Assembly (NCBI RefSeq): GCF_037042905.1
Contig: NC_087245.1
Coordinates: forward strand, 20,276,001-20,336,000
From: Lytechinus pictus
Taxonomy: Eukaryota
Reading direction: 5' to 3'
DNA: 60,000 bases
The notes beneath the pieces were generated by a model. That model made no database searches. It was not told the DNA's origin and saw only the letters and a list, made by a program, of their open reading frames with translations. The first letter of the stretch is position 1. Every line of letters starts with the position of its first letter. Both the position numbers and the translations under genes were made by a program. Positions 1,130-60,000 of this stretch are shown in pieces.

Positions 1130-3945
1130 TTCAATTCAATTTCAATTCAATCTTTATTTCGCAAAATAAGATAAAAATACAAAGAAACATCAAATAATGT
1201 GATTAGATAATAAAATAAATTGCGTGGCTTTCCATGAAGGTTATAAGAAACCTGTAAGGCTGGATCGCCAAAACATAGTAAAACGACAACAATATTGAAT
1301 TAAAAAAACACAGAATGTCATATCATTATAGTAAATACAATGTAGGAAAAAGGAGGAAAAAAACAACAACAAAGAATACAAAAAGACACGAATCGAAGGA
1401 GGGGGGGGGGTAGATATGGTACAAGTAATGCATTGATATCAACTGCGAAAATTAATAATCATTTACTAGAAAAATTTTGTACTGTTTTCTAAAGGATGAT
1501 ATAAATTGTGAATTAGTTATTATTTGGGGAATCTCGTTCCATTGTTTGGGACCTACATAACTCAATGATTTAGCTTCGTGACTAGACTTGATAGACCATA
1601 AATGAAATTTATTGGAAGAACGGGTATTATGATTATGAACTTGATTATTGTATTGAAAAAGATCTGAAAAAGGAGTGGGTAACAACCTCTTCTTGTACTT
1701 ATACATAAATATTGCGAGTTCTTGCTTATTAATATCATATATATTAAGTAAAGACAATTTCTTAAATAAAGGTGCGGATGGTGCTAGGTAATGGGAATTG
1801 GTAATTATTCTTAAACATTTCTTTTGAATTTTGAATATTGAGTCCAATTCATATGAGGTAACATTGGTAGCCCAGACAATATTGCAATATTTTAAATAAG
1901 GGAAAATTATGGAATGGTATAGAGTTATCAGATTTTTATGAAGTAAACTATGCTTAAGTTTGTAAATTAAACCAGTATTCCTACTTATCTTATGTAATAC
2001 ATTTATCATATGGTACTTAAAACTCAAAAGATTATCCAATGTGACACCTAAAAAGTTAATGGAATTACTTAATTCGATACGTTTATTGTCGATATAAATG
2101 TGAATATGAGCGTTGTCAATTGGATTATAATTATTAGATTTGTCAGTATGGGTTCGTGTTAAAGATTTATTTTTATTAAAATAGATGCATCTAGTTTTAT
2201 TGATATTCAGGGACAACTTATTTGCTTTCAACCAGTCGGAAACATTTTGGAGTTCATTGTTCAGGATGTGGATGGTATTATTTAAATCTTTAGAAGAATA
2301 AAAAATACTTGTGTCATCAGCAAATTGATAAAAGGTTAACAAATTAGATGATTTACAAAGGTCGTTTATATATAAAAGAAATAACAAGGGGCCTAAAATT
2401 GATCCTTGCGGTACCCCAACGGAAACATTTAATGAAGAAGATAAGACACCGTGGACAAATGTATGTTGAACCCTATTTAAAAGATAATCCCTAAACCAGT
2501 CTAACGCGATCCCTCGAACTCCATATTGATTAAGTTTAAATAAAAGTAATGAATGGTCCATAGAATCGAAAGCTTTAGATAGATCTAAGAAGACCCCAAT
2601 TATATGTTCGTCAGCAATAAATGAATCCATTATTTTTTGTTTAACTTTTAAAAGAACATGCTCACAGGAATAAGTGGGTCGAAATCCGTATTGAGAATCA
2701 CTTAAGATATCATTACTGTTTAAAAACTTATGTAATCGATTATATACTAGTCGTTCAAGCAATTTGGAGAAACATGGTAAGAGGGATATTGGTCTATAAT
2801 TTACAAATTTATCGGGGTCATCTTTCTTAAAAACGGGAATTACTTTAGATTCTTTGAGTTTTGAAGGTACTTTCCCAGTTGCAAAAGACAGATTAAATAC
2901 GTGAGCTAAAGGCAAGGCAATGGCATAAATGACACGCTTAACAACTTTACAATTTACGTTATCAATTCCACAACTTGCACTACTTTTAAGGCATTTACAA
3001 ATATTAATCAATTCATTTATATGTACAGGTGATAAAAAGAAGGAACCAACCACATTTGTTCGACAATAAAAGTGAGAAGAATGAATAGATTGTGGGACCA
3101 TATCACTAATATTTTTTCCAATATTTACAAAATACTCATTGAATGCATCAGATATTTCAGATGGTTGAGAATATATTTTTTGATTACATTTAAACACTTT
3201 GGGGATTAGATTTTTCTTCTTACCTAATAACTCATTAATAGTTTTCCATGTCTTTTTTATACTACTCTGATTCATATATAATATTTTTTTGTAATATTCT
3301 TGACGAGATATACGAATGATATTAATAAGTTTATTTCTAATTTTTTTAAATTTTCTCTCGTTACTGGCAAGTCTAGTTTGGCAAAATATTTTGAAACATT
3401 TATTCTTTTTTTTAATTAATCTTAAAATTTTGTTGGTAACCCACGGTTTTCTATTTCTTCTTCTCCTTTTTTGTTGTTGACGAGGAAAATGTTTATCATA
3501 AAGTTTGATGAACATTTTCATGAATAAATTATAGGATTTGTCAGCATCAATACATGCTAGTACTTCACTCCAGTCAACATTATACAGTTCAACAAAAAAA
3601 CTATTGATCGTTGATTCATTGATTTTCCTTGAAGTGTAATATTGGGCTGAATCATTCTTAAGAATTCCTTTCTTGTAACAAAAAATTGGCATGTGATCAG
3701 TTATTGGAGAATAAAGCACACCCGAGATAATATCACTTTCATTTGTTAATATATTGTCTATAATAGATTGAGATGTATTAGTTACACGAGTTGGCAAGTT
3801 AATTTTGATATAAAAGCCATATTGTGCAACCGTATTCATTAAGTTGATAGTACTATTTGAAGTCATATTCAACAAATTGATATTATAATCTCCAAGTAGA
3901 TATATTTGTTTGTTTTCTTTTGAAAGTTTTTGCAATAAATCAAAG
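1130..3945 (-). mobile_element. 5'-truncated non-LTR retrotransposon of the CR1/L2 (Crack-like) group
   Basis: Contains an ORF2 fragment, a ~320-bp 3' UTR, AATAAA on the minus strand at 1153-1158 and an (ATTGA)n tail at 1130-1151. CTTTAA flanks both ends (1124-1129 and 3946-3951), and the minisatellite resumes after it. Confidence 0.93.
1452..3935 (-). CDS. LINE ORF2 fragment: C-terminal part of AP endonuclease plus reverse transcriptase, N-terminally truncated (no true start codon)
   Basis: APE motifs LLGDYNI, PTR..S.IDNI and TDHMPI. RT motifs NYRPISLL, QYGFR, FLDLSKAFD, GVPQGSILGPLLFLLYIND, FADDT and FLGV.LD. C-terminal GPKQWNEIP. The frame stays open to the 5' junction; the listed start is a TTG. 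Confidence 0.95.
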   Translation of the reverse strand: MQKLSKENKQIYLLGDYNINLLNMTSNSTINLMNTVAQYGFYIKINLPTRVTNTSQSIIDNILTNESDIISGVLYSPITDHMPIFCYKKGILKNDSAQYYTSRKINESTINSFFVELYNVDWSEVLACIDADKSYNLFMKMFIKLYDKHFPRQQQKRRRRNRKPWVTNKILRLIKKKNKCFKIFCQTRLASNERKFKKIRNKLINIIRISRQEYYKKILYMNQSSIKKTWKTINELLGKKKNLIPKVFKCNQKIYSQPSEISDAFNEYFVNIGKNISDMVPQSIHSSHFYCRTNVVGSFFLSPVHINELINICKCLKSSASCGIDNVNCKVVKRVIYAIALPLAHVFNLSFATGKVPSKLKESKVIPVFKKDDPDKFVNYRPISLLPCFSKLLERLVYNRLHKFLNSNDILSDSQYGFRPTYSCEHVLLKVKQKIMDSFIADEHIIGVFLDLSKAFDSMDHSLLLFKLNQYGVRGIALDWFRDYLLNRVQHTFVHGVLSSSLNVSVGVPQGSILGPLLFLLYINDLCKSSNLLTFYQFADDTSIFYSSKDLNNTIHILNNELQNVSDWLKANKLSLNINKTRCIYFNKNKSLTRTHTDKSNNYNPIDNAHIHIYIDNKRIELSNSINFLGVTLDNLLSFKYHMINVLHKISRNTGLIYKLKHSLLHKNLITLYHSIIFPYLKYCNIVWATNVTSYELDSIFKIQKKCLRIITNSHYLAPSAPLFKKLSLLNIYDINKQELAIFMYKYKKRLLPTPFSDLFQYNNQVHNHNTRSSNKFHLWSIKSSHEAKSLSYVGPKQWNEIPQIITNSQFISSFRKQYKIFLVNDY

Positions 3946-4282
3946 CTTTAAAGCTCTATCCATTCCATTCTTTAAATCTCTGTCCATTCCATTCTTTAAA
4001 GCTACATCCGTTCAATTCTTTAAAACTCAACTAATTGCTTTCTTTATCCATTCGGTTCTTTAAGGCTCTACCCATTCCAGTTTTTTAAAGCTATATATAC
4101 ATTCAACTTTTAAAAGCTCTATCCGTTCCAATCTTTAAAGCTCTATCCATTCCAATCTTAAAAGCTCTATCCGTTCCAATCTTTAAAGCTCTATCCGTTC
4201 CAATCTTTAAAGCTCTATCCGTTCCAATCTTTAAAGCTCTATCCGTTCCATTCTTTAAAGTTCTATTCATCCCGTTCTTTTC
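3946..4282. repeat. Continuation of the 21-bp minisatellite (AAAGCTCTATCCGTTCCAATCTTT units)
   Basis: Near-perfect tandem units at about 4110-4260. Confidence 0.92.
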
Positions 4283-10446: not shown

Positions 10447-10671
10447 TATAATGAAAGAAAAATAGTTAACCTTGCAGTTAAGAATAAATATAATTATATT
10501 TATAGAAAATTCTCGATTTATTGAGAATTCGAGCTATGAAACAATAAAGTGCCACGTTTTAAATATTCACATTTATAATAAGTTTTAGGTCCCCAGACCT
10601 ATCGTAAGGTGTTTTATGACCCTTAAAATGAAGCATGCATTCACCATTGAAACGCTTTGCTTAAGATTTGA

Positions 10672-11112
10672 AGGGGATGTTTACCCTGACAAATATTTTA
10701 TTGTAAAAATAGCGAAAAGATAATAACAAATATTGGTGAAGAATTGAGGAAAATCCATCAAAGATTAGAAAAGTTACTAGAATTAAATGTTTTGAATGTG
10801 ACGTCATATGCGAGCAGCTACCCCATATATCGAATAGTAAAAAAAATCATGAAATGTCATTTTCTATAAAAAATGAAAACGGATTGAATTGTACTTTTAG
10901 TATATTAACATATTATTTCACCCCGCTCTTGGATGGTGTTTTTAGTCACCATGAACAATATGGGGTATAGCAGCTCGTATATGACGTCACAAAAATACAA
11001 TTCTAATAACTTTCTAAATATTTAATGGATTTTCCTCAAACCTTCACCGTTATTTTTTAATTATTTTTCTAGTATTTTTAGAACAAACTTTTTTTCAGGG
11101 TGAAATTTCCCT
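10672..11112. mobile_element. Palindromic MITE, Kolobok-like (AG...CT termini, TTAA-type target)
   Basis: Ends AGGGGATGTTTACCCTGA and TCAGGGTGAAATTTCCCT, with flanks TTGA and TTAA. Internal inverted pair TGTGACGTCATATGCGAGC / GCTCGTATATGACGTCACA. Confidence 0.8.
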
Positions 11113-11227
11113 TTAAAGCTTTTAGACCAAAGTCACCGAAGGAAAGACATTCGCTTCCGTTCCTAAGGAGCAAAAGTTTTAATAAATATGCATTTAGCAT
11201 TCGGATCAGCCCGGGCTGTTCAACCAG

Positions 11228-11398
11228 GTGGGTGTTTCATAAAGCTGTTTGTAAGTTAAGAGCGACTTTAAGAACGACTGGTGATCCTTTCTTGTGGTAA
11301 ATGATATATTCATTGGCGATGGTTAAGCGCGTAAGAAAGTATCACCAGTCGTTCTTAAAGTCGCTCTTAACTTACGAACAGCTTTATGAAACGGCCCC
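11228..11398. mobile_element. Palindromic MITE, PIF/Harbinger-like
   Basis: Inverted arms of about 55 bp: GTTTCATAAAGCTGTTTGTAAGTTAAGAGCGACTTTAAGAACGACTGGTGAT and ATCACCAGTCGTTCTTAAAGTCGCTCTTAACTTACGAACAGCTTTATGAAAC. Flanked by CAG/CTG. Confidence 0.85.
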
Positions 11399-13859
11399 CT
11401 GGTCAAGTATAATGAACAAGCAAAATTGGTTGTTGACACATTGGTGTGCGCATAATCTTTTCTTAGGGACTAAAATACTACCAAGGAGGAGAAACAGCCG
11501 AGTTAGAATTTGTCTTCAACTTGAAGTAGAAAGATATGTTTATATTCTGGAGTGTTATTTTTTTGTTGAAATTATTCAGTGAAATATATGTTTTTGATAA
11601 TATCTAGGAGCGGGGAGAAAACGCACCCTTGTCGCCCTTCCTGCTGCATACGGCCATGGTCTGACATTTGGTATTGCAAGCGCATTTGCGTGAAATGGAT
11701 CCAACTTTATATCACTTAATCCATTCGCTAGTAAATGCAGGTATGTATTCATTTGTCAATATTGAGATATGTCTGGCTTTAGATTTCTTGTCTGTTGCGA
11801 TCAAATTACAATACCTCAAAAGCTTACGCCTACGTATGCAGCATCGATAAAACATCTTTGGAAGGATTCCTACCATGTTTTATGACGTCATCAGTCTATA
11901 TACACGTGCATGCCATAAGTTGAAGAAAGTAAGAAGATAGTTTTGAAATAAACAACTCTGTGAATTTTTAAGCCTGTTCATAGTGCGGAATTTCTCTGCT
12001 ATCCATTTATTTATTCATTAAATTATAATTATTCATATTCAGTGATCTATTTACTTCTTTATTAGTATAAAGGTTGCCAAACCTGCTGTCCGTGTATAAT
12101 TTCTCACACGTATATATCTTTGAAAAACTTACTATCAAAAAGTTCTTTGTAGGCCTAATTGTCGATATAATTCGAATTTATGGTTAATGTGTATTGTTTT
12201 GTTTGTAAACAAGAACCTGAGTTCACTTTCGTTGTGCGTTCATAATAGTAATAGTGCAGTCGCTTTCAATTTGAAGTTTCACAAAATTATGAATTCAATT
12301 TTTTGAGCCTCTACTAAGTGTACTCGTGTAACCTGCCATAATTGTTACAAAAATATTGTTGTTTCCATTGTAAACAACATACTTTTAATTTCAAAATCTT
12401 GTCGTGGCCAAGTGACGCATGCATACATTAAATGATCATAGATGTGGAGATTTTTCCACTATTATTTACAAGCACTAAAATTAAATTAGTCGTCACAGGG
12501 TCCCCGTTTAGCATCAATCTCCTCTCGCCCCTTTCTCGTTCACAAATCAAAATATTAATTTTCTATTCGTTGCCGACATTTACTTCAGAACTTTCAAAGG
12601 TTTGTCTCCATGGTGATTCTTCATTACACAATGACCCCCATTTTCACTCACACATTTAAAGGAAATGCAGTTCATTGATTACATTTTGAGAATCGTCTAT
12701 TCCGTATACATGCAAGAATAAATTGAAACTTGATTCGATTCAAAATCAAATGTAATGTGGTGGGGTATAAAAGTATTTAAATGTAGGCTACATTTCCGGA
12801 GACTTTGCAATCACGTCCCATAAATTATTATTTAAAAATGCACATGCATGTGTGAGTACGTTGAAGACCGACAACTATATACGGAAGTTGATTGGAGTTA
12901 ATATGGAGCAAAAGAAATGCATCAATCTTGGTGAAAAACATCCTTTCATCCTTTATGTTTTATGATAGTCCTCTCATACATCACCATGCTGGACAACAAA
13001 TGTAGGTGAAAACAATGTTGATTGTAAACGATGATCGTTATCGTGCATATTATAATGTATAGTTACGGCACGACCACAAACATACGCCAAAACATACATA
13101 AAAAGTATCTAGAAAATCTTAGTTTGCTCTTGTCGGACCGGATCTTTACTACGAAATTCACAAGTAAGGTTAGTGGTCGCTTTCCTTCTTAACTTTTAAT
13201 TCAAATAACAAGACTTTTCACGGTTTATTATTAACCGAATTAGTAAATCCGATGAAAAGCAATAACCCTTGTTATTCGTTTACTGTCCTCTCATCAATAT
13301 CATAGGACAAGAAAACAGGTGTATCAAACTAATTACTCAATTTAGGAATGAAAAATCACAACCTACATAGACCCTCGAAAGCACTCCGTCTCGGTAATTG
13401 GGGAAGATGAGTGTATTGTAAGCGATTAGGAGTTAATCTTCAACCGATAGATTATTAGGAAAGGATTGGTGAAAATACTTCGAGATGGACTAGGGAGAGG
13501 AACGATGGTTTTGTGAACTTTATGAGCCGACGAGGTCTGGAGGGATGGACAAGAAATGTTCCTGAATGAAAGAGGAGAATTGGGGAATTGACACCAGTTT
13601 GAGAAAAGAATCAGTTTGGAATAGCAAGCGAAATTTTTTTCGACATTTCATTTAATAAGAAATCAAAATTAAATACTCCAAGCAGTGTTTGTTACTATGA
13701 AAAAGTTCTGAATCTAACTAAAGAATTGAAATTTTTTAATATACCGACCAGAATAAGGGACCTGATAAGGACTGCATTTAGTGACTGATTAATACGATAC
13801 ATATCTCACCAATCAAAAAATTCCACCCTAAAAACTGGACATTCTAAGCAATTTTTGTA

Positions 13860-14846: not shown

Positions 14847-15123
14847 TGTGGAGCGTTGTGGCCCAGTGGATTAGTCTTCTGACTTTGAAACAGAGGGTCG
14901 TGGGTTCGAAACCCAGCCATGGCGTAATTTCCTTCAGCAAGAAATATATCCACATTGTGCTGCACTCAACCCAGGTGAGGTGAATGGGTATCCGGCAGGA
15001 TTAATTCATTGAATGCATGAGCGCTGAAAGGCAGCTCGAGCTAAAGCCGGGGTAATAATAATAATAATAATAACATCGCACCTCGGAATAGAATATTTCT
15101 AGAAAGATGGCGCTATATAAACG
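14847..15123 (+). mobile_element. tRNA-derived SINE
   Basis: A box TGGCCCAGTGG (~14859) and B box GGTTCGAAACC (14903). Core ATCCACAT..CACTCAACCCAGGTG..AATGGGTA is shared with the other SINEs. Internal (TAA)n and 3' GGCGCTATATAAA. Confidence 0.88.
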
Positions 15124-21020: not shown

Positions 21021-21330
21021 AGTGAGCTTGCGATAAACACTTTTTTCCGGCAAAGAATGGGAAGCACACAGAAATGAAGACGAAAAAGGGCAAGAAAAAG
21101 ACAGAAGGAAATGTGAAATGATTGCAAAGGAAAGAAAATAAGGAGAAAAGATAAAAAAAAAAAGAACAGAAAGGGGGGAAAAGGGTAGCCCTACCTCACC
21201 CCCGTAATCCAGATTGAGTTTGTTGTTTTGTTTTGTCTTGTTTTATTTTTCGATTATGCCAGCCAAAATATCAAAAAGTCTCTCGTAAACAATACAAGCA
21301 GTGCTACCCTTCACTCAACACATGAATGTA

Positions 21331-21535
21331 CACTCTAAAAATGAAATGTTAAATCAACATTTAAAAGGTTACAGGAGTGACAACCTTTTTGTAAATGTTG
21401 CATTTACCACTTTAAATGGTGCGATCCACTGCTTAAACATTAGATTCAGTTTATGCAATGTTGGATGTAACATTAAGGAAAGGTTGTCACTCCTCCAACC
21501 TTTCGATTGCTGAATTATTGTTCAATTTTTGAGTG
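21331..21535. mobile_element. 205-bp MITE with CAC...GTG termini
   Basis: TA-CACTCTAAAAATGAA and TTCAATTTTTGAGTG-TA. Internal inverted AGGAGTGACAACCTTT / AAAGGTTGTCACTCCT. Confidence 0.82.
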
Positions 21536-22280
21536 TACCACCCACCCACCCACCCATCTATTCACCCACCATCAGACACTTATTTACACTCAAATGCAAC
21601 AACCAAACTTATACCCTAACACCTGTAGGTCTATATTTTGACCTACAACCCCACACACCAAACTACTGGTTAAGTATTATTTTTCTGTTTTTCTGAACCC
21701 CGTCTCATCTCATCATGTCTTTATTATACCATCCATTAAAAACGAAAAGCTTTTGAATGGCCCACTTAGACGAAGGGATGAAGTAAATCCTTTCCATAAT
21801 GTTTTCTTTATGAGTTCTTGAATAAATTAAAACGCTATCATTTTCCCTGGAGAGAGCTGGCTCCTCCTGATCTCAATATTTCTAGCGTTTATACTCAGAC
21901 TTATATGAAACAAGGAAAAGGAACAAAATAATTTACCTGGAGTGAATAGAATGTTAATACACAATGGGACTGTTTCACGAAGAGTAAAATGTGACTTATA
22001 CTCAGACATTACAACGACTGGCGATACGTCTTAATATCAGTCGCTTGTGGCGATCGATGGCATGTTTAAACGCTCCTCTACAATCAGTGGCGATTGATCG
22101 CCACTCGTAATCAAGTCGCAACGACGTCGAATGGCATATTACCATGTTACTCGTGATAACCGGAATGAGCTAAGATCGCTCGTATTACGACTCTATTACG
22201 AGCCTCGTAATACAGTCTGATATTCTTAAGGAGTGTTACACAGTAGTTACACATCGTAAGTGGTGATAACATGGGAAATA

Positions 22281-22622
22281 TGTGGAAGAGCCGTGGTGTA
22301 GTGGTTCTGACTCTCGCCTTGTAAACAGAGGGTTGTGTGTTTCCAATCCCACCGCGGTCTAGCGTCCTTTGGCAAGGCGTTAATCCACACTTTGCCACTC
22401 TCGACCCAGGTGCTAAATGGGTACCCGGTAGGATGCGAAAGATATTGTATGTTTGAATTTGCCAGCGCCATAATGAGGCTGCGATGAATGCAAGGAATGC
22501 TCCCCAGGGAGTGGAAATTGTGCACTTTTCGTGCGGGATTGAAATGAATCCAATGACCGGGATAATAATATGCTGTATCGCGCTTTGGGCCATTCTGGGA
22601 AAAGCGCTTTATAAAAATTGGC

Positions 22623-22930: not shown

Positions 22931-23726
22931 TATGTGTTACCAACTCCCAACTGGGAGTTTTAGAATACCATTAAATTATTCATACATAAATAATTGTGAA
23001 ATACTTTGAAATTGAAAACTAATATCCTTGATATTTCTTTCTTTATTTGTTTTGTTTTATTTTTCTAGTTTGAGTTTAGGAGGGAACGTGCTTTTCTATG
23101 AATTCTTGATTGTTGGCGAGGTCATTTTAGGTTTGTTCATGGAGTGTGTCTTATCTTATGTAGAATCTCTAATGGTGGGGTAGTGCACTCAGGCAATTTA
23201 AACTACATTATTATTCCATTACGTTCCCCCGTGACAATGCGTCTTAAGAGGTGTGTTTTATTCATCATGGTCATTGTTTTATCAATTCTTGACCCAGTTT
23301 AGTGAATGGTCATTATTTAATAAGTAGCCATTGGAGAATACAGCTATAAAAGATGAACTTTTCGCCGAAACGTTTCCTTACCTTGTCAATAGATGCGTCT
23401 TATGAGAGGCTAAATAATGAGATGTTTTTTTTTGCAAAATTACACATTAACACATGAGAGCACGCAAGATACCCCACCCCTAACCCCCACCAAACAAACA
23501 AAACAAAGAGAATCAAGTAAAGAAGATTATATTATGTTTCCTTATTTTCTACTTCCCAAGAGACCACTTCCCATCCCAGCATAATAGTAAACAAAACGAA
23601 GAAAACTTCAGTAAACTTTAAATTCAAATTAGATTATTAACATTGGTATGATTTCTGATTTAATTTTCTTTTAGCTTGTCTTCAAAACACCCCTATACAT
23701 CATTGTAAACGCACCGCAAAGAACAG

Positions 23727-23806
23727 GTGCCCGTTTCATAAAGAGTTACAACTGTTGTAACTTTGCCATTATGGCAACTACCATGGTATCCTTGATTTTG
23801 ATCGCC
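23727..23806. mobile_element. Left part of a Harbinger-like MITE, interrupted by the tandem array
   Basis: CAG followed by GTGCCCGTTTCATAAAG is the same terminal motif as the 11228-11398 MITE. The sequence breaks off at TA-CAGGTG and no right arm is in the window. Confidence 0.65.
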
Positions 23807-23808
23807 TA

Positions 23809-24277
23809 CAGGTGTCACGCGCGTAAAACATTCCCCATAGACTTGTGTGTTAAGATGGCACTTTTGAAAAATTCATAAAAAATAAATGTGAAATTAGAGG
23901 GTGGAATGTTTACTACCAATGGATAGGATATATATCTGACATTCCAAATCTGACCAGGAAAGGGTACCGTAGCCAGCTCATTTTAAAAATAAATCGCCAT
24001 TTATGAAGATAACTATGAATCGATCGAATTCTTCAACTGAAACAGTAAAATAGCCCTAATTATTCCGCCAGTCAAAAAATAGTTCCAAGTCACTTATTTA
24101 TCTTCCCAATTTGGGCGAAGTAAGTTCAGTAGTTACCATTTCTAGAATCAGTGTTAGATTTTGAATCACATTCATACATTTTTGTCAATCAGCAATATCA
24201 AATTGACAAAAATTCGAATGGGTTGGGTCGAACGAATATCTTTAGCCCTCCTGATGTAATTAGGCTCGTGGAACCTA
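23809..24277. mobile_element. 469-bp TA-flanked non-autonomous TIR element (first copy; present in every array unit except one)
   Basis: Left end CAGGTGTCACGCGCGTAA matches the reverse complement of the right end, TAGGTTCCACGAGCCTAA, at 13/18. Internal inverted pair ATTCCAAATCTGAC / GTTAGATTTTGAAT. TA on both sides. Exactly these 469 bp are missing at 51456/51457. Confidence 0.8.
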
Positions 24278-24699
24278 TATTATATGACATATGTATTTTT
24301 TTTTTTTGAATAGCTACTTTGCTATTCTTTTATATCTGTACACTCACACTAGCACAAAGAAATGCATTGAAAATGCCTATTTTCTATGCAATGACCCATT
24401 TTAATGTGTTACCCATACATGTTATTTTCACTATATATGGATGTATACAAATTCTACCTGCATAGAGCCCAACAGTGAATGCAATGACAATATAGGTCCC
24501 TGTCAATTGTAATATAAAGGTGTATGTAAATTCTGTGTAGATATCAGGATACCAGAACTGCCCCAAACATATATACATGAGATTGGATGAGGAAACAATA
24601 AAAGAATGAGATACTACTTTATTATATTTGCATTTGACCTATTCAAAATCTTCCTAGGGCTGTTGCCTCTCAAATGTAAGAAGGATAATATATACATAA

Positions 24700-24703
<4 letters not shown>

Positions 24704-24730
<27 letters not shown>
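24704..24730. repeat. (GA)n microsatellite within each array unit (first copy)
   Basis: About 13 AG dinucleotides, repeated in all units. Confidence 0.95.
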
Positions 24731-24734
<4 letters not shown>

Positions 24735-26153
24735 AAGATAATTTTATAAATGACATGGTTTAATAAAGAGGGGGGGGGCTATACTAAGATTGCAGCACAC
24801 AGCAGCCCCCCCCCCCCTCCCTCCTTAGCTGAGCACTATTAGATACCTTACCTTACTCTGTGCCCTTTTCTAAATACCTTCTTGAAGGTACCACTCTAGT
24901 TCTCTTCAGTAAAGTTTTTAAAGTTCTATCTCCTCTCTACCTACCCCCTTCCTAAGAACAATTTTAACATGAGCAATTTCTAAAGGTCTTTCTTATGCTA
25001 AGTAGGTGATGTACACTAACACAAAACAATGATAAATCAGAACATAAAGAGGCCTTGACTCTATACATTGACCAATCTACATACATTCCTAGGCTACACA
25101 GACCTACTATAACTTTACCTGATGTAGCTCTGCTAGCCATTAAATCCATTTTTTTGCACCACTAGATGACTAAACATATTGATATCAGTGAGAAATTGTT
25201 TGCTACTGAAGAGTTTGGCCAGGTATTCCATCCACTACTAGCTAGATTTCTCATATTACTTACAGGTGTCACGCGCGTAAAACATTCCCCATAGACTTGT
25301 GTGTTAAGATGGCACTTTTGAAAAATTCATAAAAAATAAATGTGAAATTAGAGGGTGGAATGTTTACTACCAATGGATAGGATATATATCTGACATTCCA
25401 AATCTGACCAGGAAAGGGTACCGTAGCCAGCTCATTTTAAAAATAAATCGCCATTTATGAAGATAACTATGAATCGATCGAATTCTTCAACTGAAACAGT
25501 AAAATAGCCCTAATTATTCCGCCAGTCAAAAAATAGTTCCAAGTCACTTATTTATCTTCCCAATTTGGGCGAAGTAAGTTCAGTAGTTACCATTTCTAGA
25601 ATCAGTGTTAGATTTTGAATCACATTCATACATTTTTGTCAATCAGCAATATCAAATTGACAAAAATTCGAATGGGTTGGGTCGAACGAATATCTTTAGC
25701 CCTCCTGATGTAATTAGGCTCGTGGAACCTATATTATATGACATATGTATTTTTTTTTTTTGAATAGCTACTTTGCTATTCTTTTATATCTGTACACTCA
25801 CACTAGCACAAAGAAATGCATTGAAAATGCCTATTTTCTATGCAATGACCCATTTTAATGTGTTACCCATACATGTTATTTTCACTATATATGGATGTAT
25901 ACAAATTCTACCTGCATAGAGCCCAACAGTGAATGCAATGACAATATAGGTCCCTGTCAATTGTAATATAAAGGTGTATGTAAATTCTGTGTAGATATCA
26001 GGATACCAGAACTGCCCCAAACATATATACATGAGATTGGATGAGGAAACAATAAAAGAATGAGATACTACTTTATTATATTTGCATTTGACCTATTCAA
26101 AATCTTCCTAGGGCTGTTGCCTCTCAAATGTAAGAAGGATAATATATACATAA

Positions 26154-26188
<35 letters not shown>

Positions 26189-27607
26189 AAGATAATTTTA
26201 TAAATGACATGGTTTAATAAAGAGGGGGGGGGGCTATACTAAGATTGCAGCACACAGCAGCCCCCCCCCCCTCCCTCCTTAGCTGAGCACTATTAGATAC
26301 CTTACCTTACTCTGTGCCCTTTTCTAAATACCTTCTTGAAGGTACCACTCTAGTTCTCTTCAGTAAAGTTTTTAAAGTTCTATCTCCTCTCTACCTACCC
26401 CCTTCCTAAGAACAATTTTAACATGAGCAATTTCTAAAGGTCTTTCTTATGCTAAGTAGGTGATGTACACTAACACAAAACAATGATAAATCAGAACATA
26501 AAGAGGCCTTGACTCTATACATTGACCAATCTACATACATTCCTAGGCTACACAGACCTACTATAACTTTACCTGATGTAGCTCTGCTAGCCATTAAATC
26601 CATTTTTTTGCACCACTAGATGACTAAACATATTGATATCAGTGAGAAATTGTTTGCTACTGAAGAGTTTGGCCAGGTATTCCATCCACTACTAGCTAGA
26701 TTTCTCATATTACTTACAGGTGTCACGCGCGTAAAACATTCCCCATAGACTTGTGTGTTAAGATGGCACTTTTGAAAAATTCATAAAAAATAAATGTGAA
26801 ATTAGAGGGTGGAATGTTTACTACCAATGGATAGGATATATATCTGACATTCCAAATCTGACCAGGAAAGGGTACCGTAGCCAGCTCATTTTAAAAATAA
26901 ATCGCCATTTATGAAGATAACTATGAATCGATCGAATTCTTCAACTGAAACAGTAAAATAGCCCTAATTATTCCGCCAGTCAAAAAATAGTTCCAAGTCA
27001 CTTATTTATCTTCCCAATTTGGGCGAAGTAAGTTCAGTAGTTACCATTTCTAGAATCAGTGTTAGATTTTGAATCACATTCATACATTTTTGTCAATCAG
27101 CAATATCAAATTGACAAAAATTCGAATGGGTTGGGTCGAACGAATATCTTTAGCCCTCCTGATGTAATTAGGCTCGTGGAACCTATATTATATGACATAT
27201 GTATTTTTTTTTTTTGAATAGCTACTTTGCTATTCTTTTATATCTGTACACTCACACTAGCACAAAGAAATGCATTGAAAATGCCTATTTTCTATGCAAT
27301 GACCCATTTTAATGTGTTACCCTTACATGTTATTTTCACTATATATGGATGTATACAAATTCTACCTGCATAGATCCCAACAGTGAATGCAATGACAATA
27401 TAGGTCCCTGTCAATTGTAATATAAAGGTGTATGTAAATTCTGTGTAGATATCAGGATACCAGAACTGCCCCAAACATATATACATGAGATTGGATGAGG
27501 AAACAATAAAAGAATGAGATACTACTTTATTATATTTGCATTTGACCTATTCAAAATCTTCCTAGGGCTGTTGCCTCTCAAATGTAAGAAGGATAATATA
27601 TACATAA

Positions 27608-49477: not shown

Positions 49478-50893
49478 AAGATAATTTTATAAATGACATG
49501 GTTTAATAAAGAGGGGGGGGCTATACTAAGATTGCAGCACACAGCAGCCCCCCCCCCTCCCTCCTTAGCTGAGCACTATTAGATACCTTACCTTACTCTG
49601 TGCCCTTTTCTAAATACCTTCTTGAAGGTACCACTCTAGTTCTCTTCAGTAAAGTTTTTAAAGTTCTATCTCCTCTCTACCTACCCCCTTCCTAAGAACA
49701 ATTTTAACATGAGCAATTTCTAAAGGTCTTTCTTATGCTAAGTAGGTGATGTACACTAACACAAAACAATGATAAATCAGAACATAAAGAGGCCTTGACT
49801 CTATACATTGACCAATCTACATACATTCCTAGGCTACACAGACCTACTATAACTTTACCTGATGTAGCTCTGCTAGCCATTAAATCCATTTTTTTGCACC
49901 ACTAGATGACTAAACATATTGATATCAGTGAGAAATTGTTTGCTACTGAAGAGTTTGGCCAGGTATTCCATCCACTACTAGCTAGATTTCTCATATTACT
50001 TACAGGTGTCACGCGCGTAAAACATTCCCCATAGACTTGTGTGTTAAGATGGCACTTTTGAAAAATTCATAAAAAATAAATGTGAAATTAGAGGGTGGAA
50101 TGTTTACTACCAATGGATAGGATATATATCTGACATTCCAAATCTGACCAGGAAAGGGTACCGTAGCCAGCTCATTTTAAAAATAAATCGCCATTTATGA
50201 AGATAACTATGAATCGATCGAATTCTTCAACTGAAACAGTAAAATAGCCCTAATTATTCCGCCAGTCAAAAAATAGTTCCAAGTCACTTATTTATCTTCC
50301 CAATTTGGGCGAAGTAAGTTCAGTAGTTACCATTTCTAGAATCAGTGTTAGATTTTGAATCACATTCATACATTTTTGTCAATCAGCAATATCAAATTGA
50401 CAAAAATTCGAATGGGTTGGGTCGAACGAATATCTTTAGCCCTCCTGATGTAATTAGGCTCGTGGAACCTATATTATATGACATATGTATTTTTTTTTTT
50501 TGAATAGCTACTTTGCTATTCTTTTATATCTGTACACTCACACTAGCACAAAGAAATGCATTGAAAATGCCTATTTTCTATGCAATGACCCATTTTAATG
50601 TGTTACCCATACATGTTATTTTCACTATATATGGATGTATACAAATTCTACCTGCATAGAGCCCAACAGTGAATGCAATGACAATATAGGTCCCTGTCAA
50701 TTGTAATATAAAGGTGTATGTAAATTCTGTGTAGATATCAGGATACCAGAACTGCCCCAAACATATATACATGAGATTGGATGAGGAAACAATAAAAGAA
50801 TGAGATACTACTTTATTATATTTGCATTTGACCTATTCAAAATCTTCCTAGGGCTGTTGCCTCTCAAATGTAAGAAGGATAATATATACATAA

Positions 50894-50924
<31 letters not shown>

Positions 50925-51878
50925 AAGAAAGATAATTTTATAAATGACATGGTTTAATAAAGAGGGGGGGGGGCTATACTAAGATTGCAGCACACAGCAG
51001 CCCCCCCCCCCTCCCTCCTTAGCTGAGCACTATTAGATACCTTACCTTACTCTGTGCCCTTTTCTAAATACCTTCTTGAAGGTACCACTCTAGTTCTCTT
51101 CAGTAAAGTTTTTAAAGTTCTATCTCCTCTCTACCTACCCCCTTCCTAAGAACAATTTTAACATGAGCAATTTCTAAAGGTCTTTCTTATGCTAAGTAGG
51201 TGATGTACACTAACACAAAACAATGATAAATCAGAACATAAAGAGGCCTTGACTCTATACATTGACCAATCTACATACATTCCTAGGCTACACAGACCTA
51301 CTATAACTTTACCTGATGTAGCTCTGCTAGCCATTAAATCCATTTTTTTGCACCACTAGATGACTAAACATATTGATATCAGTGAGAAATTGTTTGCTAC
51401 TGAAGAGTTTGGCCAGGTATTCCATCCACTACTAGCTAGATTTCTCATATTACTTATATTATATGACATATGTATTTTTTTTTTTTGAATAGCTACTTTG
51501 CTATTCTTTTATATCTGTACACTCACACTAGCACAAAGAAATGCATTGAAAATGCCTATTTTCTATGCAATGACCCATTTTAATGTGTTACCCTTACATG
51601 TTATTTTCACTATATATGGATGTATACAAATTCTACCTGCATAGAGCCCAACAGTGAATGCAATGACAATATAGGTCCCTGTCAATTGTAATATAAAGGT
51701 GTATGTAAATTCTGTGTAGATATCAGGATACCAGAACTGCCCCAAACATATATACATGAGATTGGATGAGGAAACAATAAAAGAATGAGATACTACTTTA
51801 TTATATTTGCATTTGACCTATTCAAAATCTTCCTAGGGCTGTTGCCTCTCAAATGTAAGAAGGATAATATATACATAA

Positions 51879-51913
<35 letters not shown>

Positions 51914-53333
51914 AAGATAATTTTATAAATGACATGGTTTAATAAAGAGGGGGGGGGGGGGCTATACTAAGATTGCAGCACACAGCAGCCCCCCCCCTCC
52001 CTCCTTAGCTGAGCACTATTAGATACCTTACCTTACTCTGTGCCCTTTTCTAAATACCTTCTTGAAGGTACCACTCTAGTTCTCTTCAGTAAAGTTTTTA
52101 AAGTTCTATCTCCTCTCTACCTATCCCCTTCCTAAGAACAATTTTAACATGAGCAATTTCTAAAGGTCTTTCTTATGCTAAGTAGGTGATGTACACTAAC
52201 ACAAAACAATGATAAATCAGAACATAAAGAGGCCTTGACTCTATACATTGACCAATCTACATACATTCCTAGGCTACACAGACCTACTATAACTTTACCT
52301 GATGTAGCTCTGCTAGCTATTAAATCCATTTTTTTGCACCACTAGATGACTAAACATATTGATATCAGTGAGAAATTGTTTGCTACTGAAGAGTTTGGCC
52401 AGGTATTCCATCCACTACTAGCTAGATTTCTCATATTACTTACAGGTGTCACGCGCGTAAAACATTCCCCATAGACTTGTGTGTTAAGATGGCACTTTTG
52501 AAAAATTCATAAAAAATAAATGTGAAATTAGAGGGTGGAATGTTTACTACCAATGGATAGGATATATATCTGACATTCCAAATCTGACCAGGAAAGGGTA
52601 CCGTAGCCAGCTCATTTTAAAAATAAATCGCCATTTATGAAGATAACTATGAATCGATCGAATTCTTCAACTGAAACAGTAAAATAGCCCTAATTATTCC
52701 GCCAGTCAAAAAATAGTTCCAAGTCACTTATTTATCTTCCCAATTTGGGCGAAGTAAGTTCAGTAGTTACCATTTCTAGAATCAGTGTTAGATTTTGAAT
52801 CACATTCATACATTTTTGTCAATCAGCAATATCAAATTGACAAAAATTCGAATGGGTTGGGTCGAACGAATATCTTTAGCCCTCCTGATGTAATTAGGCT
52901 CGTGGAACCTATATTATATGACATATGTATTTTTTTTTTTTGAATAGCTACTTTGCTATTCTTTTATATCTGTACACTCACACTAGCACAAAGAAATGCA
53001 TTGAAAATGCCTATTTTCTATGCAATGACCCATTTTAATGTGTTACCCATACATGTTATTTTCACTATATATGGATGTATACAAATTCTACCTGCATAGA
53101 GCCCAACAGTGAATGCAATGACAATATAGGTCCCTGTCAATTGTAATATAAAGGTGTATGTAAATTCTGTGTAGATATCAGGATACCAGAACTGCCCCAA
53201 ACATATATACATGAGATTGGATGAGGAAACAATAAAAGAATGAGATACTACTTTATTATATTTGCATTTGACCTATTCAAAATCTTCCTAGGGCTGTTGC
53301 CTCTCAAATGTAAGAAGGATAATATATACATAA

Positions 53334-59186: not shown

Positions 59187-60000
59187 AAGATAATTTTATA
59201 AATGACATGGTTTAATAAAGAGGGGGGGGGCTATACTAAGATTGCAGCACACAGCAGCCCCCCCCCCTCCCTCCTTAGCTGAGCACTATTAGATACCTTA
59301 CCTTACTCTGTGCCCTTTTCTAAATACCTTCTTGAAGGTACCACTCTAGTTCTCTTCAGTAAAGTTTTTAAAGTTCTATCTCCTCTCTACCTACCCCCTT
59401 CCTAAGAACAATTTTAACATGAGCAATTTCTAAAGGTCTTTCTTATGCTAAGTAGGTGATGTACACTAACACAAAACAATGATAAATCAGAACATAAAGA
59501 GGCCTTGACTCTATACATTGACCAATCTACATACATTCCTAGGCTACACAGACCTACTATAACTTTACCTGATGTAGCTCTGCTAGCCATTAAATCCATT
59601 TTTTTGCACCACTAGATGACTAAACATATTGATATCAGTGAGAAATTGTTTGCTACTGAAGAGTTTGGCCAGGTATTCCATCCACTACTAGCTAGATTTC
59701 TCATATTACTTACAGGTGTCACGCGCGTAAAACATTCCCCATAGACTTGTGTGTTAAGATGGCACTTTTGAAAAATTCATAAAAAATAAATGTGAAATTA
59801 GAGGGTGGAATGTTTACTACCAATGGATAGGATATATATCTGACATTCCAAATCTGACCAGGAAAGGGTACCGTAGCCAGCTCATTTTAAAAATAAATCG
59901 CCATTTATGAAGATAACTATGAATCGATCGAATTCTTCAACTGAAACAGTAAAATAGCCCTAATTATTCCGCCAGTCAAAAAATAGTTCCAAGTCACTTA

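Follow-up and report, generated by a model that had tools for sequence, protein, structure and literature searches.

The window analyzed here, a stretch of 60,000 nucleotides from Lytechinus pictus (contig NC_087245.1, positions 20,276,001 to 20,336,000 of the forward strand), ends in a long tandem array, one unit of which is distinctly short. The locus raises the question of what the missing piece is and how it was lost. An initial annotation, made from the letters alone, had proposed that unit 20 lacks a 469-bp mobile element and had left two readings, an excision footprint or an ancestral empty unit.

The array starts at position 23811 and runs along the forward strand (as do all features below unless stated otherwise) to the last base of the window at 60000, past which it continues. 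Across its length, direct repeats of about 465 bp (LTDRs) alternate with internal regions of about 990 bp (INTs). There are 25 LTDR starts, and each of the 24 complete LTDRs is 465 bp long, with TACA on its 5′ side and TATA on its 3′ side; these copies fall into two sequence types (20 and 4 copies). The first LTDR (23811 to 24275, GG...CC) serves as the reference for the piece that is absent at 51454/51455. Its 16-bp left TIR (23811 to 23826) pairs with an imperfect right TIR of the same length (24260 to 24275, reverse strand) at 12/16 inverted identity. The first INT (24276 to 25264) is noncoding, is 989 bp long, opens on TATA, and has TACA as its last bases, while INT lengths across the array range from 986 to 995 bp. 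Among open reading frames of at least 80 aa, the first unit contains just one, a stop-to-stop frame of 84 aa, and no transposase gene was found in the array. The absence of a long open reading frame is expected for a nonautonomous family.

Of the 24 intervals between successive INT starts, 23 are 1451 to 1460 bp long, with the length variation located at G runs, C runs, and an AG repeat. When the homopolymer and AG runs are normalized, 17 of the 25 INTs are identical, and the mean pairwise difference is 0.99 of 946 bases, or approximately 0.1% (276 pairs; one INT of a different length excluded). The array is therefore either young or strongly homogenized. Two linked variants recur in 6 of the 25 INTs (those at 27184, 31541, 37365, 38822, 47559, and 51455 are examples), one further INT carries one of the two, and a third variant is present in 4 of the 24 LTDRs. 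The recurrence of these variants in scattered units, with no period, is a sign that the units of the array exchange sequence. Growth of the array was most likely driven by unequal crossover between LTDRs, in keeping with the published model. Outside the array, BLAST returned only short matches in window positions 1 to 23806 and no other copy of the LTDR or INT. An Rfam search of positions 1 to 27000 gave no matches, and pattern scans of public collections gave 0 and 0 hits in metagenome contigs and 0 in viral contigs.

Based on sequence comparison, the array is almost certainly a multimer of KolobokP-N2_LyPi, a nonautonomous DNA transposon published from the same species with a length of 1904 bp, LTDRs of 465 and 464 bp, a TSD of 4 bp, and a TIR of 16 bp (Kojima & Bao 2022, PMC9587614, Table S1). 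When read line by line by eye, window positions 23811 to 24275 match the published N2 LTDR at 462 of 465 bases. The published N2 INT begins with TATA and ends with TACA, as do the INTs of the window; the first INT is collinear with this entry (KolobokP-N2_LyPi-I) by eye, the differences being uncounted (PMC9587614). As described in that paper, KolobokP elements carry LTDRs of ∼450 or ∼660 bp as direct repeats around an INT, and the published N2 LTDR has the ends GGTG...ACC over 465 bp, with 4-bp TSDs for the family (PMC9587614). Several traits that define KolobokP are present in the array: direct repeats in the order LTDR-INT-LTDR, all 24 complete LTDRs being 465 bp; short imperfect TIRs on each LTDR (11 to 18 bp in the family, 12/16 over 16 bp here); termini of the form 5′-RR...YY-3′ (here GG...CC); and multimers with INT-INT junctions that lack a few bases at one tip (3 to 4 bp in the family, 4 bp here). 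The array differs from the published N2_LyPi in INT length (986 to 995 bp versus 975 bp, i.e., 1904 minus 465 and 464), in a variant INT 3′ end, and in one changed base in the right TIR. It also differs in its size, as a multimer of at least 25 LTDRs, whereas the insertion tables of the paper cover molluscs only (PMC9587614). Autonomous KolobokP members code for a DDD/E transposase, and one of them, KolobokP-1_LyPi (4984 bp), comes from the same species and shares the left terminus and TIR (PMC9587614). The autonomous element with similar TIRs for which the initial annotation had suggested a search is thus already in the literature.

The short unit is the single interval (50474 to 51458) that departs from the usual spacing. 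As the initial annotation had noted, it is shortened by 469 bp: it measures 985 bp instead of 1451 to 1460 bp, and global alignment places a single 469-bp gap. In order, the region consists of an LTDR (50005 to 50469), INT 19 without its 3′ TACA tip (50470 to 51454), and INT 20, complete at 990 bp (51455 to 52444), which directly adjoins INT 19 and is followed by the next LTDR (52445 to 52909). The junction at 51444 to 51467 reads ...CTCATATTACT TATA TTATATGAC, with the same letters as first annotated; its single remaining TATA lies at 51455 to 51458, the TACA and LTDR (469 bp) are absent, and the motif is present only once in the window. The short unit is therefore an LTDR-(INT)2-LTDR substructure from which one LTDR and one TACA tip are gone and in which one TATA is left. 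Only 1 of the 25 INT ends abuts another INT with 4 bp lost. Since the two tips are unequal, the side of the loss can be read in this array: the upstream TACA was lost, and the TATA was kept.

Because TA is present on both sides, a 469-bp deletion fits in exactly three equivalent registers, at offsets −4, −3, and −2 from the LTDR start. Register −4 takes out TACA together with the published 465-bp LTDR. The span first given for the deletion, 23809 to 24277, corresponds to register −2 and is thus one valid placement, but the element itself is 465 bp (23811 to 24275) with 4-bp flanks. The missing piece was correctly recognized as a discrete unit with a TIR at either border. Its right end had been placed at ...GAACCTA or ...GAACC, giving an element of 467 or 469 bp with TA flanks, which disagrees with the GGTG...ACC ends, the 465-bp length, and the 4-bp TSD of the published LTDR (PMC9587614). 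The two outcomes derived from those ends also fall: the tips are 4 bp, with one TATA kept and TACA lost, instead of two TA copies left behind by cut-and-paste excision, and a clean single-TA empty site is contradicted by the published ends and 4-bp TSDs. Nor is an ancestral empty unit supported, as the spacer belongs, as internal region, to the same composite-like transposon and is not host DNA invaded by a MITE.

Both the family and this type of junction are already known from the 2022 description, and the short unit is a clean example. Kojima and Bao describe LTDR-(INT)n-LTDR structures with a single TATA left, attribute them to a solo LTDR or a monomer having been excised, and report flank losses of 1 to 5 bp, on one side per event; their excision model rests on genome comparisons only (PMC9587614). 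In KolobokP-1_MeMe, -7_MeMe, and -4_MyCo (Table 2 and Fig. S2 and S3), as here, two INTs abut, the LTDR is absent, and one tetranucleotide is left (PMC9587614). In KolobokP-1_MeMe both tips are TATA and the lost side is unreadable, whereas the present array has two different tips, of which the upstream one was lost. The published INT consensus of another family from this species, KolobokP-N1_LyPi-I, likewise runs internally from an INT end into an INT start across one TATA (PMC9587614, supplement 3), so that an INT-INT structure may have spread as a family in its own right. Our additions are small: at least 25 LTDRs in one array, where the longest multimer among the supplement 2 rows examined has 6 (PMC9587614); a loss whose side can be read; and weak hints of junctions of the form LTDR-spacer-LTDR. 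Regarding the last, three published supplement rows resemble an LTDR end, 3 to 5 bp, and an LTDR start (5 to 7 matching bases each), and the term “LTDR-LTDR” has 0 occurrences in the main text (PMC9587614). A literature search, with most subscription journals and Repbase Reports outside its scope, retrieved no experimental test of KolobokP excision.

For comparison with DNA outside the window, 24 public sequencing runs were screened; the best share of sampled words was 0.44, and none reached half. Contigs of four runs (X1, X2, X3, and X15) were aligned at 85% likeness, a setting at which repeat-derived joints are possible. In these data the INT is also repeated DNA, and it is joined to the LTDR in X1, X2, and several diverged X3 contigs. 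In one X3 contig, an INT end of the consensus type runs through the same TATA into an INT start (25234 to 24276, depth of 92.4), while none of the joints listed for X1, X2, and X15 is of the INT-INT type. A further X3 contig gives weak support to an LTDR end joined through TATA to an LTDR start (24278 to 25264; its short side has 20 letters). In several X3 contigs, a T replaces the window's C just ahead of the LTDR, which points to 4-bp flanks rather than TA.

The form of the INT end bears on the order of events. Compared with the published consensus, the array-type INT end shows two substitutions and an insertion of 2 bp. It is the form of every one of the 25 INT ends in the window, that at the junction among them, and none is of the consensus type, which is found in the published consensus, in the main contigs of X2 and X15, and in the X3 contig with the INT-INT joint. 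Since the junction carries the array's own INT end, the LTDR was probably lost from a unit of the array's own lineage, and the loss is probably derived; on the simplest reading, the X3 junction would represent a separate event. The element ends, the lengths and tips, the junction, and the array-type INT end at the junction can all be read directly from the window. The polarity argument is not airtight, as single array-type letters also occur in some outside contigs (in X3 at 25244, with the other letter in 23.8 of 56.6 depth, and in X15 at 25251, 167.3 of 197.2). The date of the loss is only relative, given by its place in an array whose INTs diverge by ∼0.1%.

At its left edge, the array apparently interrupts another repeat. 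Positions 23724 to 23806 form the left part of a high-copy palindromic MITE, recognized from contig depth at 23724 to 23807 and from loose contig ends at 23724 to 23749 and 23786 to 23802 in X3 and X15; its right part is predicted to lie past the far edge of the array. The 4-mer directly left of the first LTDR is TACA (23807 to 23810), identical to the INT 3′ tip; it is the candidate left TSD of the whole insertion, whose right-hand copy would lie past the window. TACA also serves as a TSD in clam KolobokP-1_MeMe rows (PMC9587614), which makes an ordinary TSD plausible here. Over the 8 bases preceding the LTDR, however, the consensus of the interrupted MITE (from loose contig ends) disagrees at 4, and the TACA may thus have arrived together with the element.

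Further repeats are scattered over the rest of the window. A second palindromic MITE (11223 to 11403) has ends similar to those of the interrupted one and a different body, the interrupted MITE being very abundant in X3 and X15. Additional palindromes or inverted repeat pairs, probably other MITEs, lie at 10663 to 11121, 21328 to 21538, 18906 to 19292/19787 to 20168, and 9456 to 9503/10405 to 10452. A short dispersed repeat has three diverged copies (722 to 866, 14888 to 15001, and 22274 to 22434). A diverged 24-bp minisatellite occupies positions 7 to 548 (with an inversion near 220), 860 to 1129, and 3946 to 4280. Between blocks of this satellite lies an 831-aa stop-free frame (1452 to 3947, reverse strand), which, from its motifs, we take to resemble part of a non-LTR retrotransposon, namely its endonuclease tail and reverse transcriptase.

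Several explanations other than loss of an LTDR from this unit were weighed. The one that survives best, although we consider it unlikely, is that the INT-INT junction is older and was imported from another copy or allele by unequal crossover or gene conversion, or that it is a leftover unit that lacked an LTDR. INT-INT junctions do exist elsewhere, in the X3 contig and in the published N1 consensus (PMC9587614), and the scattered recurrence of the two linked variants indicates that units exchange sequence. Against import, the INT end is of the array type up to the joint, while the X3 junction is of the consensus type, the nearest diagnostic base being ∼10 bp away; moreover, the INT end without an LTDR is unique among the 25. 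Such an origin would shift the date of the excision and not its nature.

A chance deletion between two TA dinucleotides, through host repair or slippage and without a transposase, is very improbable. Long arrays often break and recombine, and a 2-bp TA microhomology is present, with three equivalent placements. Yet of the 9,991 TA-to-TA pairs 100 to 1400 bp apart, only 3 lie with both ends no more than 5 bp from those of the LTDR, and only 39 of the 189,020 spans of 400 to 529 bp in one unit reach 12/16 terminal inverted identity; the position of the breakpoints is therefore not a matter of chance. In addition, the 469-bp deletion is the sole large deletion among the 24 units, and several clam families (PMC9587614) as well as X3 show further junctions of this type.

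We hold an assembly artifact in a collapsed tandem array to be highly unlikely as well. Near-identical units that vary at homopolymer runs, and comparison data consisting of contigs from other runs, leave room for an error. It would, however, need to end at both TIR ends and mimic the junction type of other genomes, and the neighboring units carry private variants and hence are not simple copies.

Least credible, and to be dismissed for practical purposes, is a TA-targeting MITE of the Tc1/mariner type (467 or 469 bp) in a host satellite, or a tyrosine-recombinase element with a 4-bp core: TA does stand at both ends, but the published family has GG...CC ends, 4-bp TSDs, and a DDD/E transposase in its autonomous members, and the spacer is the family's own INT (PMC9587614). 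The junction is also symmetric about its first TA (13/20 matches, reached by 6 of 1,694 TA centers), which weakens by eye with the consensus INT end and was set aside as probably incidental. Tc1/mariner MITEs that target TA leave a 2-bp TA duplication and have no paired long direct repeats. They resemble the LTDR in being small and noncoding, with TIRs and a TA beside each end, but the 4-bp tips and the published ends do not fit: the 2-bp TA duplication outside the TIRs was not found, and TACA and TATA stand outside the published ends, with a TSD of 4 bp. Crypton-type tyrosine-recombinase elements have no TIRs or long direct repeats, carry 4- to 6-bp terminal direct repeats, and use a tyrosine recombinase (PMC3212892), whereas the array has both TIRs and long direct repeats and its matching family is partnered by a DDD/E transposase. 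A reading as Ngaro-type split repeats was dropped once the KolobokP match had been found.

Taken as a whole, the locus is best read as a head-to-tail KolobokP-N2 multimer from which an LTDR was probably removed by a transposase acting at the TIRs, with TATA kept; the enzyme, the timing, and the chemistry of the loss are the parts that we infer. Under the published model, each LTDR carries both TIRs and would itself be a small substrate for the KolobokP DDD/E transposase. The enzyme would presumably have been supplied in trans by an autonomous relative. The initial annotation had spoken of recent transposase activity in trans; supply in trans is the best explanation, with the autonomous KolobokP-1_LyPi published, while “recent” holds in a relative sense only. 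Acting on a left and a right TIR, the transposase would have removed either one LTDR or a block of the form LTDR-(INT-LTDR)k, with the same scar in either case, and the unit haplotypes near the junction are compatible with both. The two flanking 4-bp tips, TACA and TATA, would then have been resolved to one, with TACA gone and TATA kept.

With regard to chemistry, we favor, at about even odds, one-sided strand transfer that yields abutted ends with a short spacer, by analogy with IS3 and IS256; a circle of this type with a short spacer has been proposed for KolobokP on the same analogy (PMC9587614). A less favored possibility is that of staggered cuts whose 4-base overhangs are rejoined with mismatch repair, on the model of piggyBac. 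The piggyBac transposase makes staggered cuts with 4-base overhangs that rejoin. Overhang rejoining would likewise keep a single tetranucleotide, and scars with TATA as well as scars with TACA would be expected from it; the two informative scars are both TATA, too few to decide. More specifically, we tentatively suggest that KolobokP may use a pathway like that of IS30 and IS3, in which the attack by one TIR lands a few bases outside a second TIR and produces abutted ends with a 3- to 5-bp spacer. The LTDR-LTDR contig of X3 and the three supplement rows are hints of it. A simple reciprocal pair is disfavored, as the 469-bp deletion predicts a TACA spacer and the LTDR-LTDR junction in X3 has TATA. 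A bacterial parallel is the loss of ISApl1 (IS30 family) from Tn6330, ascribed to abortive transposition, in which a unit flanking the composite transposon is lost with near precision and the joint retains a short sequence in a single copy, as here (PMC5821093). Unlike the array, that system is bacterial, has its transposase inside the IS, and excises 1,064 to 1,074 bp, making it a mechanistic analogy only.

With at least 36 kb of sequence and ∼0.1% divergence, the array represents a DNA transposon multimer at the scale of a satellite. Its unequal tips, TATA and TACA, assign each loss to a side and so bear on how KolobokP LTDRs leave. If the pathway resembling that of IS30 and IS3 holds, a single reaction would yield both INT-INT scars and LTDR-spacer-LTDR junctions, and very long multimers such as the present one would act as reservoirs on a satellite scale, from which solo LTDRs are shed. 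Should abutted-end junctions or LTDR circles be confirmed, a eukaryotic DDD/E transposon would share a pathway with bacterial IS families.
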